From a virus (Duplodnaviria > Caudoviricetes), in IMG/VR virus record IMGVR_UViG_3300048672_000522, positions 1-60,534 of that record: DNA of 60,534 bases, one strand, 5' to 3'. Shown here piece after piece: positions 3,282-15,863 of the stretch (positions within the stretch are counted from its first letter, which is position 1; the number at the start of each line of letters is the position of its first letter). The notes beneath the pieces were generated by a model. It was not told the origin of the DNA. It did not search any database and worked only from the letters and a program-made list of their open reading frames with translations. The position numbers and the translations under genes are program-made.

Positions 3282-3827
3282 TTAAGCTACCGTAGCGCCT
3301 TGTGATGAAGAAGACGTCCAGTAGTTGTATTGGAATGTCACAGGGAAGATTTCAATCTGGTTGTTAGCTTCCCAATCAAGTGCAATTTGACCAACATCCA
3401 TCGGCCATGCATCCTTGAAGGTGTATTCCTTGACTACTTGGTCATTTCTGTCCATTTGCAGAACTTGCATATCCACTTGATACAACAGAGGGTTCTGTGT
3501 GCCGTTTGTAGATTCTGCGTTCTGGATTGTGTCGACCCAAGCTTCAAATGCATTACGTACAGTGAAATCATTGTCGTTGTACACTTCAATGGTCCAAGGC
3601 TGGAATTCACGTTCGCCTGCAAAATGTACTGGGCGACCGCGGAAACTTACCGCCACATCGGTGATTGTAGAAGAAGGCAGTGATGCAGATTTTGCAACGA
3701 ATTGCAATTTCTGACCTGCCAGTGCTGCATTAGGAACAATAGTAGGGAACGTGATCTGAACCATGAATTGGTTAGCACGTGCTCCGCCATTGATCATTTG
3801 AGCTTTAAATTGTGAAATTTGTGCCAT
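3282..3827 (-). CDS. gp19: Tail tube protein gp19
   Basis: GGARANQF, FRGRPVHFAGEREFQPWTI, FPVTFQYNYW; start MAQISQF with AAGGA RBS; no TAG. Confidence 0.96.
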   Translation of the reverse strand: MAQISQFKAQMINGGARANQFMVQITFPTIVPNAALAGQKLQFVAKSASLPSSTITDVAVSFRGRPVHFAGEREFQPWTIEVYNDNDFTVRNAFEAWVDTIQNAESTNGTQNPLLYQVDMQVLQMDRNDQVVKEYTFKDAWPMDVGQIALDWEANNQIEIFPVTFQYNYWTSSSSQGATVA

Positions 3828-3847
3828 GTTTATGTTATCCTTTTCGA

Positions 3848-3855
3848 TATTTATG
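3848..3855 (-). promoter_or_regulatory. T4-type late promoter (CATAAATA) upstream of gp19
   Basis: One mismatch to the TATAAATA late consensus, ~20 nt upstream of the start codon. Confidence 0.6.
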
Positions 3856-3859
3856 ATGG

Positions 3860-3876
3860 AAAGGGACCGAAGTCCC
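3860..3876 (-). terminator. Hairpin/terminator between gp18 and gp19
   Basis: Minus strand gggac-ttcg-gtccc followed by ttt. Confidence 0.7.
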
Positions 3877-3886
3877 AATCTTCATA

Positions 3887-5863
3887 TTAGGCAGTGCCGC
3901 CAATGATTTCATCAAAACTTGCGCCTGTGCGAGTAGCAACGAATGACAGTTGGATGAAGTTGATGGAACGTGATGGCTTCAGGTAAATGTCAGCAACAAA
4001 TCTGTTACCATCAATCACTTCGGCAGTGTTGTTAGTCTCATCACAAACGCACTTGAAGTCGATAATACCGCGGCGACCCTTGACATCACGCAGGAATGGC
4101 TCAACCATGTTACGGAATTGTGCACGAGTGAAACCATCGTTGAATTCAAACAGTTGGTACTTAGCAGCAGTGGCAATAGCCTTTTCCAATGTGATGAACA
4201 GACGACGCACGTTGATACGATCGAATGCGGATGGCTTAGCCAAACCGGTTTTGTCACCATACAGAACGACACCTTGACCTGGGAAAGAAACCACTGGGTT
4301 GACACCATTCAAGTACAGTGTATCGCGGCTAGCTTTGGTTGGGTTGTATGCCAGTTTGATAGCATTCTTCACCTGACCACGGTTAAAACCAGCAGGAGAG
4401 AACCATGGATCATCGGTGTAGTCGGTACGCGCACACAGACCTGCAATATCACCATTCAGTGGTACCCAACGATATGCATCATTGTAGCGGTCGTACTGGT
4501 ACTTGTAACCAGAATCGAACACAACGTAAGAGCTAGAAGGCAGAGAAGTCAGAGATGCACCATCACCATTCTTGTACTTAACAATTGCTTCATCAGCATC
4601 AGCATTAGAGCCAATGATTGGTTCACCGGTGCCAACGTTCTTAGGAGAAACGAATGCCATGCAGTCCTTGCGGACTTCAACGATATTATCGATGATAAAG
4701 CGAGCCATTTCTCTGTCTGCATCACCAGCCATAACCAAACTAACGTCATACTGTTCATCATTAGCGAACAGAGCATATGCATCAATTTTGTCAGCATTGG
4801 TAGAGGCATAATCATCTGCACCACCTGCTAGAGTAGATGTAACGGCTGCAGTCAAGCTCTTATATGCTGCACCATTGACAGCCACGGCCCCCCAGTCAGC
4901 ACCAGTACCAGAAACTGCTGTTGGGTGATCCATCCAGTAAACATATTGTGATGCATTGTTGATAGCATTCTTGATATAAGAAGAAGTACCATCAGATTTC
5001 TTAGCATTCGATGCTTTGGACAGGAAAGCATAAGATTCGATCACTGTACCTGCGGTACCAGTCCACTTGCCATCAGCGTCTACCACCACCACGTGCATTT
5101 CATCATTGCTAGCACCAACGGAAGTAGCAAAGTCGGAAGTTCCTGGCTTGATGCCGAAGACTGCTTTATAAGCCCATGCATCAAATGTAGCAGAGTCTGC
5201 CATCGACACAGTCAAGGAGTTACCCAGTGAACCTGGGTAACGAGCAGCAAATTCTCCAACAACACCTTCACCATTTGCATAAGACATCTGGTATGAATCC
5301 AGATTGTTGATCTTGATACCGCCATCTACTTTAGTAGCAGTAGCAGTAGCGTTGGCACCAGAACCAGTAGAAGCAACAGTTACAGTAGGGGCTGCAGTGT
5401 AGCCAGAACCTGGATTAGTAACAACGATACCTGTGATCACACCACCAGAAATGGTAGCAGTGCCTGTAGCTTGAATACCACCGGTGACCTGTGGAGCAGA
5501 GAATGAAACCGAAGTCTCAGAGGGAATGTAACCAGTTCCGCCGGCACCAACTGTTACAACACCGACTCTACCTGTGAGGGTAGAAACAGAGTTGAATTGA
5601 CCAGCGGTATCGGTACGAACAACGAGAGCCGAGGCGCTATAGCCAAGGAAGTTTGCCACGTTGAACCAGTTTTTGAAGTTTGAGTTGTTTGGTTTACCAA
5701 AGCGCTGAATCAAAACATTTTCGGAATCAATGCTTGTGACATCCATAACTGGACCCCATGCTGCATCGATAACCGCAGCACCAACAGAGCTAGATACTGC
5801 TGGGACGATGTTTGTCAGATCTTTTTCAGTAACAACAACTGATGGTGAAACGGAAATTGCCAT
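3887..5863 (-). CDS. gp18: Tail sheath protein gp18, 658 aa
   Basis: SPSVVVTEKDLT, PWFSPAGFNRG, SAFDRINVRRLF, FVATRTG motifs; no TAG. Confidence 0.97.
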   Translation of the reverse strand: MAISVSPSVVVTEKDLTNIVPAVSSSVGAAVIDAAWGPVMDVTSIDSENVLIQRFGKPNNSNFKNWFNVANFLGYSASALVVRTDTAGQFNSVSTLTGRVGVVTVGAGGTGYIPSETSVSFSAPQVTGGIQATGTATISGGVITGIVVTNPGSGYTAAPTVTVASTGSGANATATATKVDGGIKINNLDSYQMSYANGEGVVGEFAARYPGSLGNSLTVSMADSATFDAWAYKAVFGIKPGTSDFATSVGASNDEMHVVVVDADGKWTGTAGTVIESYAFLSKASNAKKSDGTSSYIKNAINNASQYVYWMDHPTAVSGTGADWGAVAVNGAAYKSLTAAVTSTLAGGADDYASTNADKIDAYALFANDEQYDVSLVMAGDADREMARFIIDNIVEVRKDCMAFVSPKNVGTGEPIIGSNADADEAIVKYKNGDGASLTSLPSSSYVVFDSGYKYQYDRYNDAYRWVPLNGDIAGLCARTDYTDDPWFSPAGFNRGQVKNAIKLAYNPTKASRDTLYLNGVNPVVSFPGQGVVLYGDKTGLAKPSAFDRINVRRLFITLEKAIATAAKYQLFEFNDGFTRAQFRNMVEPFLRDVKGRRGIIDFKCVCDETNNTAEVIDGNRFVADIYLKPSRSINFIQLSFVATRTGASFDEIIGGTA

Positions 5864-5913
5864 CTTATGTTCCTTTGTCAAATTAAAATATTGTAGAACT
5901 TATGTTCACTAGG

Positions 5914-5921
5914 TATTTATA
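5914..5921 (-). promoter_or_regulatory. T4-type late promoter TATAAATA upstream of gp18
   Basis: Exact TATAAATA in the gp17-gp18 intergenic region. Confidence 0.8.
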
Positions 5922-5937
5922 CTTTTGAATTCTTGAA

Positions 5938-7275
5938 TTAGAAGTGAAACGTATCGGCTTCAGATTCTGTCCCATCAGAAAAGAATCCAGCAGGCATCAT
6001 TGCATCTTCTGTTTGTTTCTGCCTCAATTCAATAATTCTTGCTTTCGCCTACTAACTTGTCAATTCTGCCATAATACCCTGTGTAGTTAGGTAAGCGAAC
6101 AGAACAAGGGTCATAACTCTGTCATCATGTCCGTTCTCTGCTTCATATGAAGAACCTTTAAGAGCAAAGTTCTATAGTTCATACAGAATTTCTGAATCGC
6201 GGATAATCAGCTGATCATTCTCAATCAATGTCTTGAGGACAGAACAGCCTACTGATTTTGTTTTCTTTGTAGTTCTCAGGCCTGGTTTCTCTCCACCAAA
6301 TGCAGACATTTCACCTTTACTATCTGACATGATCACTTCTTCGTATTCATAATCATAGTACAGAGAAGATGCTATACTTTCACCGATATCATTCGTTTCT
6401 ACTAACACAGATGCATTATTGTATTTTCTAGCCAGATTCAATATGACACCTGGCAAAAGCAATGGGCTTACTTCATTATCTGCATACACAGCATCCACTT
6501 TATATGGGAGCTATGTGACATTAACAATAGTAAATGCAGAATAATCATTCCCAGTACCTCGAGCAGTATCCACATTCATGACATACTGATTGCCTGGCTT
6601 TGGTTCATCATATACATGAAGGGTGGGAGACACAGCTAGCGGTACTTCTACTGGTATAGCATTTATCTTTGAACCAGAAATCAATGTATTACTAGCACCC
6701 TGGAACTCACAATTCATTTCTTGTGCGAATTTAGATTCACCCAATACTGCTTTTTGGTCGTCTGCCCATTTCTGATCTCTGCCGGGTACATCCTACCAAA
6801 TAGCTTTAGTTAAGTTAAACCCGTTCAATCCCTATTCTGCATCCTTCACAAGTTTATAGAAATGGTTCATCCCGTTAGGTGTACTGATAATTGCAATCTT
6901 AGATTCTTTACCAGAAGAGATCGTCGGATATACAGAAGCAAAGAATTCATCTGCGGTATTATTTGGAACGAACGCGAACTCATCCAATAATAACATAGAG
7001 CAATTGTGACTTATTTCTGTGCCGGTAATATATTGATTGCCATTTGCTACATTAGAAAGATCATAAACCGTTTGTGTCTTTGAAATAGAATGTGGCAGCT
7101 CTCGTGCTTCTATCCATTTGCCATTTCTCATTACTCTATGATCTGGTGTACAGACAAGACCAGAATCAAGTTCTATAGTTTCTCTATCTTTTGTGATTAC
7201 AATGCCTGAGAAATCTTGCCAACCCTATGGAGTCAAGATTTCCCACTCACTAACATCAATTAGTTCTTGATTCAT
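5938..7275 (-). CDS. gp17: Large terminase C-terminal half, preceded by C-intein (91 aa, 7003-7275)
   Basis: MNQELIDVSEWEILTP*GWQDF...CTPDH...VYDL...SHN|C, then LLLDEFAFVP (Walker B), STPNGMNHFY, VDTARG and GHDD; several TAGs; ends at TAA. Confidence 0.93.
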
Positions 7276-8248
7276 TAAATTTCTTCTTTCTTCCATTCGG
7301 ATTACCATGTAACCACCCAGTTGGTTGTTGATCAGGGAAACACTGAACAATCTCCGCAATGTTCAGCGGGTTGTGATATATCTTTTTGCCCGCATTAGAA
7401 GCACCACCGATCTATTTGAGATATTCTTTTCTTTTCTCGCTCATCAATTTTTTCTATTCTTCAGATCTTTTTGAACCTAGATGTTTTTCGACAGACTTTC
7501 GAATCTTGTCTGGGTTTTTGTTGATTTTATCTGAGTGTTCCTTAGACTTTTTGACACCAGTTGTGTATTCTTTTCTTCTAAGAGAATCTTTTAATTGGAG
7601 ATATTCTGGTGGCCAATATAATGTACTATCCTTTTCTTTGAATTTTCTTCCTATTTGCCAGTTCTCATGTAGTATCGGAGCTATCTAATAATGCACTTTA
7701 CATATTTCTCCAGTTATAACATGATATACTGGTATCAATTCTTTGCCAGCACACTATTCAATTATAGATTTACTTCCTTTTTCTATCTATTCTTTGCTTC
7801 TTTTTGTGCCCTTTAGTCTACCTCTATTAGCTTTGCTAATCTTTTCTCTAACTTCGGGTCTTTTCTATGGATTTAATTCACCCTTAGAAGCATCTGTATT
7901 TGCTTGTCTGGCTTCAGAACAAAGAACGGCATATTCTTCTAATTGATTTTCAGTCAGTGTCTATAGTCTTTTTCTTCTTGTTTTGTTTACTTGATTAAAC
8001 TATGAAAGTGAAAAGCATATATTTCTATACTGAACTTTATCTCTATCTTTGTACTCTTTAAATGCTTTGTACAGAAACCAATGAGCTTTGAAATGATCTA
8101 GAACAGAGATTTTCTTAGTTATGTCATTTGGACCAAATATACACTTTGGATATATGTGGTGGTTCTCTCCTATTTCTACTATCTCAGAGGTCTCAATATG
8201 ATTGAAATATTTTTCTAACCATATATTATGAAAATTGAATTTGTACAT
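7256..8248 (-). mobile_element. Free-standing HNH-type homing endonuclease with NUMOD3-like repeats, 330 aa, 8 TAGs
   Basis: ENHHIYPKCIFG...DHFKAHWFL motif; GELNP*KRPEVREKISKANRG and GSKRSEE*KKLMS repeats; overlaps both terminase halves. Confidence 0.85.
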
Positions 8249-8882
8249 TTATATCTTCCTCATCACTAGATGAATTTGCATTCTGTCTATTTAATGATGA
8301 GAATTTTTCTATTGACAATTTCTTCACTTCCCCCGTTATTTTATTTCGCACAGTTATTTCGGTGTCACCGGCGACACAAGTAAAACCCCGAATTGCACTA
8401 GATGATGTAGAAGAAGCAAGAACTCTAGATCCATTTTCCAGAACGAAAGAACCTTTATTCCATTCCACTACACCTTGCTGGATCCACTTAGGTAATAATT
8501 CATATGCAAACTGTACACGTGAAAGAATTTCTCTTGCTGTAGAAGCTTTGTTAGCTAGAATTGCGGTTGTTTTGTGATCATTAAAAAGAATATACCAGCA
8601 CACGAATGCCGCGACAACCGTAGTTTTTCCAGCCTGGCGACAGATTACAGCTGCAGTCTTCCTGTTCTGCCATAGAGAATAAACAATATCTTCTTGATAT
8701 TTGAATAATTTCATAGGCTGTACACCATGGTCTACAGTAACAATTTTTACATAATTCTGGATAAAATAGATTGGATCATATTTGCACTTGATCCATTCTC
8801 CAATATTATTTTCTGACCATTGGATTTCAACTCCTGCCGCCTTTAGCTGAGGATTACCATTGTATGAATGTGGTTTCTACAT
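8226..8882 (-). CDS. gp17: Large terminase N-terminal half fused to N-intein (50 aa, 8229-8378)
   Basis: M*KPHSYNGNPQLK, DPIYFIQNYVKI, CRQAGKTT (Walker A), SSSAIRGFT|CVAGDTEITVR; ends at TAA. Confidence 0.93.
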
Positions 8883-9595
8883 TAATTAATACTCCAATCA
8901 TCAACGATCAATTCACCGGTAGAAGGATTTACTTGCTAAACATGAGTAGAACCCATAGGATCTGGAAGATTGGTCTCAGTGCGATAAATGACACCATTAC
9001 CTCTAACCGGTCCGACTAATTTCACCTTAGCAGTAAAATCAAATACATGAGTCACGAGACGTCTTGTGCTGAAATCACCTTCATAATCATCTTGAACAGA
9101 AACACCATTCAGAATAATCGGGACATCAACTGCAAGATTCATTTCTGGCAATGTGTTAACGGTCAATGTATATTCAGGGGTGAATAGAGGTAGAATCTGC
9201 TCAACAATCGCAAGACCGTCTTCAGTACCCTTAGTCAATGCATATAACTGTATAGTGAGATCATATGGGACAGGGGTGTATACAAATGTTGTACCATCTG
9301 CCTTAGCACAAGAAATTTTGTTATTACGGTTAGTCATTTCAGCTGAATTGAAATTGTATCCTGTAATTTCAAACCCAAGTCTTGGAAGTGCGACAAACAC
9401 TCCAGCCGTCAATTCAGGATCTGCATCAAGCCGAGTAATAAACTTTTCTTTTGGCCCATACGCAATTGGTACTTTAACCACTTCTACAGTAGTGCCAGCA
9501 TTGCGTCTAATTACTTGGACATTAGAAAAAAGTGCACCGAACCCGATGATTACTTTCTTGATTGTTTCTGGATAGAATGCTTGGTCAAACATCAT
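8882..9595 (-). CDS. gp15: Tail sheath stabilizer/completion protein gp15
   Basis: KVPIAYGPKEKF, LPRLGFE, EQILPLFTP, YEGDF; reads through TAG 8936 to a TAA overlapping the gp17 ATG. Confidence 0.93.
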
Positions 9596-10233
9596 AAATC
9601 TCCAAACGGGTTGTTAGTATCTAAGATGAATTGAGAAGCTTTTGATTTAAGCTTTGTGTTATCACCAAATGATTGTGGAGTTTCTACATTGGCAGTTCCT
9701 GTTGTAGCTAGATCATTGAATGCATCAATAGAGGCTACACCTGTCTCTAGTTTCTCACTCGAGTAACGGAATTTCTCAACTGTGAGTTTGTAGACATATA
9801 ATTGCCCGAGTTGATAGAATGGATTTGAATGTTGCACGAACATAATTTCAAGAAGCGCTTTTGTCCTTGGATAATAGATCAGATCACCTTCCGCTGGGCG
9901 ATTCGGTAATATCGTTTGCCCATACTGACCAACAGTCTGATCCCAAGTTCTTCTTGCCACAGTCAGTGTAGCTTGTTGGTCCATCTGAAGACCAAACTTG
10001 GACATCATTGCCCCCTGACCTTCAAATCCGTCAATAGATTCTAGGTACATCACAACTGGATATGAATTCTTGAACTTACTCAGTCTGTCTTCTCCAAGAA
10101 CTTCATCCTTAGCAACAAATGTTCTTGGTATGTACATGAAATCATCACCATGCATTTCAACTGCTTCTGTGATGAGACTTTCATATAGAAGATTCTCTGA
10201 TGTGTAGGCAGAATTTAAGAGTCTTAACGTCAT
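9592..10233 (-). CDS. gp14: Neck protein gp14
   Basis: YIPRT, LGED, GFEGQG, SKFGL, RPAEGDLIY, PFYQLG, NPFG. Confidence 0.93.
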   Translation of the reverse strand: MTLRLLNSAYTSENLLYESLITEAVEMHGDDFMYIPRTFVAKDEVLGEDRLSKFKNSYPVVMYLESIDGFEGQGAMMSKFGLQMDQQATLTVARRTWDQTVGQYGQTILPNRPAEGDLIYYPRTKALLEIMFVQHSNPFYQLGQLYVYKLTVEKFRYSSEKLETGVASIDAFNDLATTGTANVETPQSFGDNTKLKSKASQFILDTNNPFGDL

Positions 10234-10595
10234 TGTATTACCCACCCTCTAGTGGAATCCGTGTATGTAAATTTCAGTGAGACATTCTTAGAGTTGATAG
10301 TAAAATCCTCTAGCAGAGACATGATCCTCTATCCATTTCTGAGTACAATAGGAGTTATTGTACCGCTTGCATTCACTATGATAACCCAGTCACCTGCTGA
10401 AGGTGTCGCTGGCAATGTTATATTTACAGCCGCGCTTAGAACATATGTGATTGATCTAACTGCCGAAGTATTAGTTGATACAACTTGGATTCCATCTGTT
10501 ATGACTGGGGTAATGAGTGTCTTGTTAGTTAGAGTTTCTGTACCAGCAAGCGTGACGGAAGTTTGTGTCCCGAGAATAGATGAAAATGTAGCCAT
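10230..10595 (-). CDS. Small tail-fibre-associated protein, 121 aa
   Basis: TLPATPSAGD...RNG*RIMSLLED...FTYTDSTRGW; TGA stop overlaps the gp14 ATG. Confidence 0.75.
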
Positions 10596-14462: not shown

Positions 14463-15863
14463 TTAATATGTGCCGCAATCGATAGTCACATTATCGAAGG
14501 TGGTTAGACCGGTGATAGAACCACCGGTTATATTTATGTTTGAACTTGATTGTGTTGCTATTGTGCCTAAACCCAATGTAGTTCTCATTGTAGATGCATC
14601 GGTGTCATCCAATAGAGATCTAGCAAATGTTGTCAATGTAGTGAGTGCTGCTGATGCTGCGCCTGTGTAGTATGCCAACTGATCAGCCGCAGGGGTGAGA
14701 CCACCAACAGTCGAAAGAGCGGCAGACAGAGAGAACGTTGGGTTACCGGCTACACCATCGCCATTCGATACACTGATGCCAGTACCGGAGACTGACAGTG
14801 TTCTTGCTGCGATAGTACCCGATGCAGTTCGGGTAATTATACCATTAGTTGCATTGCTATGATACCCGGCTAATTCTGTACTGACGGAAATTGTGTTACC
14901 AGACTTAACGATGCCAGTACCAGCAGTGATACCGCCAGCACCGTTGAACTGCACGAAATCAATACCAGTTGTGTCAAGAGTTCCGCCTGCATTAGAAGTA
15001 CATACGAAGGCAAAATCCGCCTGAGTAGAACCTTCCTCCACGAACATGTAAGCACCAGGTACTTCTGCCCAGGAATTCATATCCGTAGCACGAGTCCAAG
15101 AACCTGCAGCAACAATATAGACACCATTCTGAGATGTAGTAGATTGGTTCTTTACCAGAACTCTGTCACCTGCAATCAGTGCTACACCATCAATCGTTTG
15201 TGTGCCAGAGAGGGTGATGTTAGCAGTAGTCGCAGCTCTTACAGATGCTTTAGGATCCAAACCTTGCAGCAGTGTATCCGTTTCCGTCTTGGTATAAGCA
15301 TCAGTGATGCCGTATCCAGAAATTGTAGTCGGCTTGGATGTAATGCTAGACCAAGCAGGAGTAATTGTGGTTAGTGCTCCGGTAGAAGTAACTCTACCCT
15401 TAGCATCAACTGTGAAGGATTGTGTCTGTGTGGCAGAGTTGTTATATGTGCCAGCGGTGACACCGGAGTTCGCCAGGGTGAGAGTGATTGCTGTAGTACC
15501 AGTACCAGAAGCATCGCCAGAAACTGTTATCGATTGGTTACCTGTAATGTAACCTTGTGCTTTAACATAAGCAGTAGTCGCAGCAGCAGTGCTGTTATCA
15601 GAAATAGCTGGAGTCGGGAGAATTGGAGATGAGGAGAATGTCTTGACTCCTGCAACCGTCTGCGCTCCGGTGAGACCAACGAAAGCACCTGGTCCACCGA
15701 TAGGTATAACTGTTGTTGCACTGCCACCGCCACCGCCAGTTCCTTTGCCGTAATAGAGTACATCATCTACTTCATTAAAGGCTAATTCGGCATTAGCCAA
15801 ACTAGCAGGAGCGCCTGCAGCACCACCCTGGGCACGTCTTTTGATTCTTACTGTATTCGCCAT
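14463..15863 (-). CDS. Tail fibre protein, 466 aa
   Basis: IRIKRR-type N-terminus with ELAFNE; KASVRAATTANITLSGTQTIDGV...RVLVKNQ...NGVY...WTRATD; ends IDCGTY. Confidence 0.85.
   Translation of the reverse strand: MANTVRIKRRAQGGAAGAPASLANAELAFNEVDDVLYYGKGTGGGGGSATTVIPIGGPGAFVGLTGAQTVAGVKTFSSSPILPTPAISDNSTAAATTAYVKAQGYITGNQSITVSGDASGTGTTAITLTLANSGVTAGTYNNSATQTQSFTVDAKGRVTSTGALTTITPAWSSITSKPTTISGYGITDAYTKTETDTLLQGLDPKASVRAATTANITLSGTQTIDGVALIAGDRVLVKNQSTTSQNGVYIVAAGSWTRATDMNSWAEVPGAYMFVEEGSTQADFAFVCTSNAGGTLDTTGIDFVQFNGAGGITAGTGIVKSGNTISVSTELAGYHSNATNGIITRTASGTIAARTLSVSGTGISVSNGDGVAGNPTFSLSAALSTVGGLTPAADQLAYYTGAASAALTTLTTFARSLLDDTDASTMRTTLGLGTIATQSSSNINITGGSITGLTTFDNVTIDCGTY

Follow-up and report, generated by a model that had tools for sequence, protein, structure and literature searches.

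A phage terminase gene split by an endonuclease gene inside an atypically broken intein: sequence analysis of a fractured TerL locus

Organization of the locus

The DNA analysed here, all 60,534 nucleotides (nt) of the viral record IMGVR_UViG_3300048672_000522 from IMG/VR (Caudoviricetes; hereafter the window), comes from a freshwater T4-like phage with a gp17-type terminase large subunit (TerL), and this subunit is encoded in two pieces. According to the listing and translation of open reading frames (ORFs), the minus strand carries between positions 5938 and 8882 three genes in three different frames and with overlapping ends (Table 1). The first encodes the N-terminal part of the terminase (TerL-N) and closes with a short N-terminal intein fragment (IntN), the second is a free-standing gene of homing endonuclease type, and the third opens with the C-terminal intein fragment (IntC) and continues into the rest of TerL. 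Motifs, alignments and related loci make it very probable that the locus is a fractured gene, in which a class 1 mini-intein was broken by a Mob-like endonuclease gene and the halves of the enzyme are joined by protein trans-splicing.

TerL-N reaches ...SSSAIRGFT and passes directly into 50 residues led by a cysteine (CVAGDTEITVRNK...IQFS; Cys1 codon at 8376-8378). An initial annotation had read the same end, SSSAIRGFT|CVAGDTEITVRNK...FS-TAA, and it is present in the minus-strand ORF 8226..8882. The separate IntC gene described there, with CTPDH, VYDL and SHN|C followed by SMLLLDEFAF, is present as well, in another frame; after SHN come Cys+1 (codon 7000-7002) and the Walker B strand SMLLLDEFAF, in a protein of 445 amino acids (aa). 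The gap between the halves was passed over in that annotation; it holds a 330-aa endonuclease ORF, which shares 23 nt with the TerL-N gene and 20 nt with the IntC gene. Also left unmentioned was the genome-wide use of TAG as a sense codon: the window has 169 in-frame TAGs in 46 long tiling ORFs and is coherent only when TAG is read as an amino acid.

The fragment lengths first proposed, 50 aa for IntN and 91 aa for IntC, stand when IntC is counted from the ATG at 7275, with the reservation that only about 26 of the 50 IntN residues are core-like. Alternative in-frame ATGs at 7296 and 7308 would give an IntC of 98 or 102 aa. A Met equivalent to that at 7275 begins the database homologues P0003-P0005, and in L002, an independent IMG/VR contig of 75% identity, the IntC frame opens only 21 nt upstream of the L002 ATG.

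Table 1. Features of the fractured TerL locus and its downstream flank (window coordinates).
Feature	Coordinates	Strand	Remarks
TerL-N gene	8226..8882	-	218 aa: 168-aa N-extein and 50-aa IntN; TAA at 8226-8228
TerL N-extein, 168 codons	8379..8882	-	Walker A region; ends ...AIRGFT; codon 2 is TAG (8877-8879)
IntN core, 26 codons from Cys1 (block A)	8301..8378	-	from IntN conservation, pN/pS and the contiguous intein P0058
IntN tail, 24 codons (SSLNRQNANSSSDEEDINVQIQFS)	8229..8300	-	GAGGA Shine-Dalgarno (8257-8261) and endonuclease gene start lie inside
Free-standing homing endonuclease gene (putative activity)	7256..8248	-	330 codons and TGA; 8 in-frame TAGs; third frame
IntC, 91 codons from ATG at 7275	7003..7275	-	block B TPDH, block F VYDL, block G SHN; TAG at 7225-7227
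TerL C-extein, 354 codons from Cys+1	5938..7002	-	Walker B LLLDEFAF, nuclease domain; TAA at 5938-5940; six TAGs
TATAAATA	5914..5921	-	downstream of TerL, upstream of sheath gene; pattern search

Terminase exteins and insertion site

Both outer genes are recognized as terminase. TerL-N matches Pfam Terminase_6N (E=1.4e-11) and phrog_5989 (E=1.5e-57), and the IntC gene matches Pfam Terminase_6N and Terminase_6C and phrog_2 (E=5.8e-30). Across the junction, the family profiles break off and restart at one position (364|364 in phrog_2, 516|517 in phrog_36964). The related IMG/VR phage L003 (70% identity, also TAG-recoded) has an uninterrupted TerL of 521 aa. Residues 1-168 of TerL-N align with residues 1-168 of this protein without gaps (86% identity) and residues 93-445 of the IntC-gene product with residues 170-521 (71% identity), Cys+1 standing opposite L003 residue 169. 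Abutting exteins on an intein-less homologue, a mark of class 1 inteins, are thus seen both on L003 and in the profile positions. The TerL of Caulobacter phage Cr30 is also uninterrupted at this point.

The insertion point, RGFT|C...SHN|CSMLLLDEF, lies immediately before Walker B. Because the intein sits there, an active TerL would need trans-splicing, which agrees with what had been proposed for it from the sequence.

The intein and its break point

Eight aligned IntC sequences share, without exception, T43 and H46 (block B), D72 (block F), H90, N91 and C92 (Cys+1), and among ten IntN sequences Cys1, Val2 and Thr6 are invariant and Gly4 nearly so. The locus has in its sequence the residues of a class 1 intein, namely Cys1, Cys+1, the TxxH of block B, the block F Asp and the His-Asn of block G. 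A profile of the eight IntC sequences matches PDB chain 6DSL_B ("consensus engineered intein CatC") with E=4.7e-10, the match spanning positions 6-93 of the profile and residues 12-114 of the chain. P0007, a homologous protein with the intein in one piece, passes the threshold of Pfam Intein_splicing with 37.3 bits. The TAG noted earlier in IntC is at 7225-7227, within ILTP-x-GWQDF, and Cat, L002 and P0005 have Ser at that place.

Cat is described as the consensus of AceL-TerL and GOS-TerL, the only natural atypical split inteins named in a review of the subject, with IntN/IntC lengths of 25/104 for AceL-TerL, 37/115 for GOS-TerL and 30/104 for Cat (PMC11766414). In the window, the break falls between blocks A and B, block B being in IntC, and IntC starts within a few residues of the CatC start. 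The match between the IntC profile and CatC is almost end to end, which places the break at the same point as in AceL, GOS and Cat. Homology of the window intein to the AceL/GOS/Cat TerL intein, and a split at the same atypical point, are thus supported by sequence comparison.

The insertion site is another matter. CatC matches the contiguous intein of P0009 with E=2e-34, and the P0009 site, QEFE|C...SHN|CEFMG, lies far downstream of Walker B. As CatC matches this intein and Cat is the AceL/GOS consensus, AceL, GOS and Cat would belong to this CEF site. By way of P0009, we infer that the window intein, with its different site, is a different allele from theirs. Of the AceL-TerL-type arrangement suggested for the window in the initial annotation, the break before block B and the homology (6DSL_B, E=4.7e-10) hold, and a shared insertion site does not.

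IntN core and tail

The protein P0058 (669 aa) has a contiguous intein at exactly the insertion site of the window, 60% identical over IntC. This intein consists, in order, of a 26-residue N-terminal core, a 15-residue loop and the strand EWEVLTPSGW. Its first 26 residues are the counterpart of the IntN core, and the window IntC reaches the equivalent of the EWEVLTPSGW strand after a 9-residue head. By this alignment, IntN divides into an intein core of about 26 residues and a tail of 24. IntN has no Pfam match, and its PDB sequence search gave a match at chance level only.

Ratios of non-synonymous to synonymous differences per site (pN/pS) against L002 are 0.24 in the IntN core (25 codons), 0.36 in IntC (88 codons) and 0.23 and 0.17 in the exteins, all of them rough because synonymous sites are near saturation against L002. 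They point to purifying selection on the IntN core, IntC and the exteins. In the IntN tail pN/pS is 1.10, with an unusually low pS of 0.34 (21 codons).

A NANSS motif (window 8262-8290) is kept in the IntN tails of relatives, in phages with and without the endonuclease alike, and its region includes a 16-nt stretch identical to L002. The motif may act at the DNA level, e.g., through endonuclease expression signals or as a recognition site.

Predicted association of the intein halves

The IntN-IntC complex was predicted for a homologous natural pair, P0005(1-102) with P0012(100-162), from alignments of 6 and 9 rows. An ipSAE of 0.68 was obtained, against 0.00 for the best control; the runs agreed in at least 67% of contacts, and the partner had a predicted local distance difference test score (pLDDT) of at least 62. 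The ipSAE mark is reached by 58 of 80 solved complexes and by 2 of 110 mismatched pairs. Cys1 and its neighbours are predicted to contact block B (40-47), block F (68-73) and block G/+1 (89-93), and strands of IntN to pair with the IntC head (residues 8-14). Of the IntN core, the confident interface takes in the first 14 residues and a few near the core end. Because a like complex, 6DSL, has been solved and the result may be memory of it, the prediction shows likeness and is no independent proof of binding.

Association is also all that the predicted complex speaks for, which leaves room for TerL halves that assemble non-covalently, with the intein halves as a dimerisation handle only and no splicing. 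NrdA of phage Aeh1, split by an HNH endonuclease, offers such a precedent, being functional without ligation in a T4-like phage (PMC2677866). This explanation is nevertheless improbable: the residues of the splicing chemistry (Cys1, TxxH, block F Asp, His-Asn, Cys+1) are all invariant, an unexcised HINT domain of about 140 aa would press directly on Walker B, and the characterised relatives AceL, GOS and Cat are described as splicing (PMC11766414).

The gene between the halves

The endonuclease ORF matches phrog_655 "homing endonuclease" (E=1.3e-10) and phrog_12434 "HNH endonuclease" (E=2.7e-6). It has 29 database homologues, 15 of them with a precomputed PF07460 assignment; the closest are P0205 (67%) and P0206 (63%). 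In an alignment of nine sequences E28, H30, H31, H52 and H56 are invariant, in the pattern GE.HH...H..AH. The catalytic His-Me (HNH) motif is thus N-terminal, and NUMOD-like repeats follow downstream. The AlphaFold model has a mean pLDDT of 72.7, with about 85-96 in the first ~130 residues, and residues 28-65 form the strand-strand-helix of a His-Me finger at pLDDT of about 90. Foldseek gave 41 matches at E<=1e-3 in BFVD (HNH, NUMOD and homing endonucleases, including T4 MobC and MobE/MobD-like proteins), with the low TM-scores expected of a beads-on-a-string protein. By sequence and model, the middle gene most likely encodes a Mob-like HNH/NUMOD free-standing homing endonuclease, whose cleavage and homing are putative. 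Equal-sized source contigs suggest that P0205/P0011 and P0206/P0012/P0005 share the three-gene layout.

Endonuclease genes are often carried by group I introns of T4-like phages, and an interruption of the present kind might accordingly be removed by a self-splicing intron, or skipped by ribosomal bypass, with a contiguous intein then splicing in cis. For this locus that is scarcely credible. Rfam gave no intron family over 6800-8600 at E<=1, the only hit being a below-threshold snoRNA. The pieces are three genes in three frames with overlapping ends, with GAGGA as a Shine-Dalgarno sequence before the endonuclease gene start and a purine-rich stretch ahead of the IntC start, and it is at the IntC Met that gene callers begin the homologues. 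The L002 halves, too, are separate genes, although the 108 nt between them would not accommodate an intron.

Support from sequencing runs

Run X1, a freshwater metagenome and possibly the source, has one 30.6-kb contig which spans 5500-9300 and shows no differences. Run X2, a freshwater metagenome from another study, contributes four 151-nt pieces, of which two fall in TerL-N and two in the endonuclease gene; apart from a single base in one piece, all agree with the window. No joints or indels in the fractured locus were found in X1 or X2, X2 being informative only where its four pieces lie.

These data bear on the possibility that the phage is defective and its terminase gene dead or in decay, or that the contig is mis-assembled and chimeric. 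The contig is a 60.5-kb metagenome fragment, and its gene junctions are spanned only by the run that is possibly its source. Against this, none of the three ORFs is disrupted once TAG is read as sense, as it must be over the entire contig. The same break is also present in other, independent contigs and in phages in culture, and purifying selection on the intein core is accompanied by runs free of joints and indels. Decay or chimerism is therefore very unlikely.

States of the insertion site in relatives

The site of the window is found in several states. It is empty in L003, holds a contiguous mini-intein in P0058, and is split without an endonuclease in L002. The split state with an orthologous endonuclease is seen in the window, and inferred linkage suggests it for P0011/P0205 and P0012/P0206/P0005. 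The series of empty, contiguous, split with endonuclease and split-only states matches the gene-breaking model of Dassa et al. (PMC2677866).

L002 has the same intein with the same break, 108 nt between the halves and no endonuclease, which suggests that a split can persist after loss of the endonuclease that caused it. In the gap an ORF of 30 codons, with a Shine-Dalgarno sequence, occupies the place of the endonuclease gene start. A DNA alignment of the gap with the endonuclease gene gave only a 16-nt identity, no better than shuffles, and the view of this ORF as an endonuclease remnant is only suggestive. L002 also has a second atypically split intein (L002:2656-5422), located in the P-loop (RQMGK|C...SHN|S), and no endonuclease lies between the halves of either intein. 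With two atypically split inteins, its TerL is in three genes.

L014 and L016 have IntN, a homologous HNH/NUMOD gene and IntC, with the insertion two residues downstream of that in the window; their HNH/NUMOD gene is 27% identical to the window endonuclease over 315 columns (E=5e-15). L024 and L011 have a CEF-site intein with a GIY-YIG gene, and in L006-L009 and L013 the intein is contiguous. IntN is fused in frame to GIY-YIG (L005:1942-3501, L012:1645-3498) or to HNH (P0022) in other relatives, the IntC gene being separate. Such IntN-endonuclease fusions are an intermediate between a bifunctional intein and a fractured gene.

A search of 1.84 billion representatives with the IntC profile gave 1161 matches at E<=1e-3, 318 of them at E<=1e-10. 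Among the best 150 of the 1161 representatives, 91 have an IntC-like match that starts within the first 25 residues. Matches followed by a pre-Walker-B extein are N-terminal in 51 cases and internal in 49 among these best 150, extein classes being assigned by patterns of our own and the search profile, with its 11 extein residues, favouring the pre-Walker-B site. A FastTree phylogeny was built from 148 IntC-like domains, i.e., the near-full-length matches of the best 150 representatives and the window; 28 of 175 matches had no recognisable end or extein class and were dropped. Insertion site is clustered on this poorly resolved tree (23 changes, as against a mean of 44.5 and a minimum of 38 in 200 shuffles), and the window falls within a starred (97) set of 22 rows, all with the pre-Walker-B site. 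No clustering is seen for the split versus internal state (48 changes; mean of the shuffles 49.7), and the resolution of the tree is too poor for splitting events to be counted.

IntC is matched by 36 GenBank phage records, in which the homologous sequence lies in the TerL of cultured T4-like phages of Yersinia, Escherichia, Salmonella, Shigella, Vibrio and Shewanella. In Yersinia phage phiR1-RT (L032:1531-4380), g166 is TerL-N and runs from ...IYIDE into a 31-aa IntN, g167 is an "endonuclease", and g168 starts with IntC, in which SHN is followed by CAFIPNF. This phage is cultured and viable with a fractured TerL, which argues that the halves are joined or at least that they work.

TAG as a sense codon

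Codons of the window were compared with those of the TAG-recoded phages L031 (92%), L002 and L003, in long non-overlapping ORFs only. Where the partner of a TAG is another codon, it encodes Ser in 56 of 109 cases, followed by Ala (12), Gln (11), Glu (9) and Thr (7), and with substitution frequencies from the same alignments Ser leads every other amino acid by at least 133 log-likelihood units. TAG stands at places of conserved Ser, e.g., in the STSSSAIRG motif of L003 and at TerL codon 2. When cultured relatives with the standard code were used instead, the residue in the majority opposite TAG was S in 9 columns, D in 7, T in 6, Q in 2 and N in 2 (30/84 covered columns). The likelihood for the single genome against distant cultured phages is ambiguous, with Gln best and Ser 2.7 nats behind; the close relatives resolved it. 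TAG most likely encodes serine in this lineage, by codon comparison, and not the glutamine usually assumed for phages. The serine codon (TCN) earlier proposed as a replacement of the IntC TAG agrees with this (Ser 56/109). A search of the literature, which was not exhaustive, found no report of a natural phage code with TAG read as Ser.

Several abundant structural genes (sheath, tube, a 466-aa fibre/decoration-like protein and head closure) have no TAG; the coordinates of the TAG-free genes are 3887-5881, 3282-3878, 14463-15863, 9592-10245 and 1122-1676. Other genes of the window have up to 2-3% TAG, and the endonuclease has 8 in 330 codons.

The database homologues P0011, P0205, P0003 and P0004 have Gln opposite TAG or conserved Ser (STQQSAIRG vs STSSSAIRG). 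Table 15 was probably applied in the public gene calling of this phage group, in which case TAG would be mistranslated there. The probable reading of TAG as Ser matters directly to anyone expressing these proteins.

Comparison with known systems

The canonical, DnaE-type break of split inteins is at the endonuclease-insertion loop between blocks B and F, with an IntN of ~100 aa and an IntC of ~35 aa. The window locus shares with such systems a two-gene intein that would restore an essential enzyme by trans-splicing, and differs in its break between blocks A and B. The canonical point is also where the other GOS inteins are broken (PMC2677866).

Arrangements like that of the window are widespread and have been described before in a few terminases, in 2009 for one of gp17 type; the window is a new example. 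In that study, the fractured gp17-type terminase has an unusual break, the endonucleases reported are GIY-YIG or Vsr-like, and HNH cases are anticipated (Dassa et al., 2009; PMC2677866). The window shows what defines a fractured gene, i.e., adjacent halves of a split intein on one strand with an endonuclease gene between them. Like the window, the GOS locus belongs to an uncultured aquatic myovirus, divides a gp17-type TerL into two parts that flank a free-standing endonuclease gene, and has an IntC that keeps every motif of the N-terminal intein part except the first. The two loci differ in the site (the inferred CEF site vs pre-Walker-B in the window), in IntN/IntC lengths (37/115 vs 50/91), in position 1 (Ser in GOS-TerL vs Cys), in the sense reading of TAG in the window, and in the endonuclease, GIY-YIG or Vsr-like in the published cases and HNH/NUMOD here.

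With AceL and Cat, the window shares the HINT lineage, the break point, an IntN core of about 25-30 residues, Cys1, Cys+1 and a TerL host. It is set apart by the distant similarity (E=0.068 for the single sequence), the site, an IntC of 91 vs 104 aa and the 24-residue IntN tail. AceL, GOS and Cat splice and have been characterised as tools (PMC11766414).

As in the window, TerL of phiR1-RT is encoded by two genes separated by an endonuclease gene, IntN is short (31 aa), and block B belongs to a long IntC. The phiR1-RT site is after Walker B (IYIDE|C...SHN|CAFIPNF), its code is standard, its IntC is about 30% identical, and its endonuclease does not belong to the HNH/NUMOD family seen in the window. 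In the records, the genes are named "terminase large subunit" and "endonuclease" only, and that of phiR1-RT mentions no intein. In open-access text, no description as inteins was found for the pre-Walker-B allele or for loci of the phiR1-RT type. Two-piece TerL annotations in cultured T4-like phages are probably split-intein genes.

The Mob proteins of T4 have, like the window endonuclease, a His-Me finger with NUMOD-type repeats and are encoded by free-standing genes within or between essential phage genes; the window gene differs in lying inside the intein coding region, not between genes.

Proposed route to an active terminase

A sequence of events that would fit the locus is as follows. 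Three proteins would be translated separately, each from its own start, from overlapping genes which are probably co-transcribed, as there is no terminator-like or late-promoter-like (TATAAATA) site between the three genes by pattern search. TAG would be translated, most likely as Ser. Docking of the short IntN into the larger IntC, with its blocks B, F and G, may complete the HINT fold. An acyl shift at Cys1, transfer to Cys+1, cyclisation of Asn91 and a final S-to-N shift would then ligate the 168-aa and 354-aa exteins to a TerL of ~522 aa and release the intein halves. As to the endonuclease, its target is presumably the intein-less terminase allele of a co-infecting relative, which it would cut and so bring in both itself and the intein.

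A number of observations weigh against such a fractured, trans-splicing TerL. The single IntC sequence matches CatC in the PDB only with E=0.068. In Pfam, IntC reaches 15.5 bits with Intein_splicing, where the cut-off is 35.8, and IntN has no match; each piece is only a fragment of the domain, which accounts for scores under the curated threshold. The comparison with intein models put forward in the initial annotation thus succeeded for the eight-sequence profile against CatC (E=4.7e-10) and fell short for Pfam Intein_splicing (15.5 vs 35.8 bits). No constraint at the protein level is visible in the distal half of IntN (pN/pS 1.10, 21 codons), and in the predicted interface the tail has its 4 proximal residues and none of its last 16. 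The pair used for that prediction is 63-65% identical to the proteins of the window and is not the window's own.

For the endonuclease, Foldseek with the whole model, which is elongated and multi-domain, gave 0 PDB matches at E<=1e-3, and the N-terminal 100 aa matched no HNH model of Pfam even at E=10. X1 is possibly the source sample, none of the X2 pieces bridges a gene junction, and both runs are DNA contigs, whose support is at the DNA level. ARAGORN found no tRNA, and so no suppressor tRNA, on the 60.5-kb contig, for which reason the reading of TAG in IntC, TerL and the endonuclease draws on comparative evidence. With these points counted, the fractured, trans-splicing TerL remains the very probable interpretation.

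A second reading goes further and is put forward with much less confidence: the window may represent an uncharacterised pre-Walker-B allele which, given its low similarity to AceL, GOS and Cat and its shorter IntC, is potentially an orthogonal and compact ligation pair, in a phage lineage with TAG as Ser. If it is true, the maturation of TerL needs two layered steps, amber-to-Ser suppression and protein trans-splicing. Independently of this reading, the locus and its relatives provide a second, diverged family of atypical alleles at another TerL site, and natural inteins with a short IntN are sought for protein semisynthesis and labelling. The four-stage series (empty, contiguous, split with and without endonuclease) makes the gene-breaking model of 2009 testable on one series.

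Regulatory sites and neighbouring genes

The pattern TATAAATA, presumably the T4-type late promoter consensus, has 4 matches in the window against 2.9 expected, so that the match at 5914-5921 is not significant alone. No such site lies inside the fractured locus. Scans for sigma-70 promoters and terminators over 5800-9700 gave nothing usable. A search for related loci with the 948-aa fibre-like protein of the window gave no relative.

The gene order around TerL is that of T4, with head closure, sheath stabiliser, TerL, sheath, tube and portal. In the window, the end of the sheath-stabiliser (gp15-like) gene (8880-9595) coincides with the TerL start, and no small-terminase gene lies between. 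A small-terminase gene is present there in S-PM2, HTVC008M, Melnitz, Cr30 and phiR1-RT, and L003 has only a 61-aa ORF at this place.

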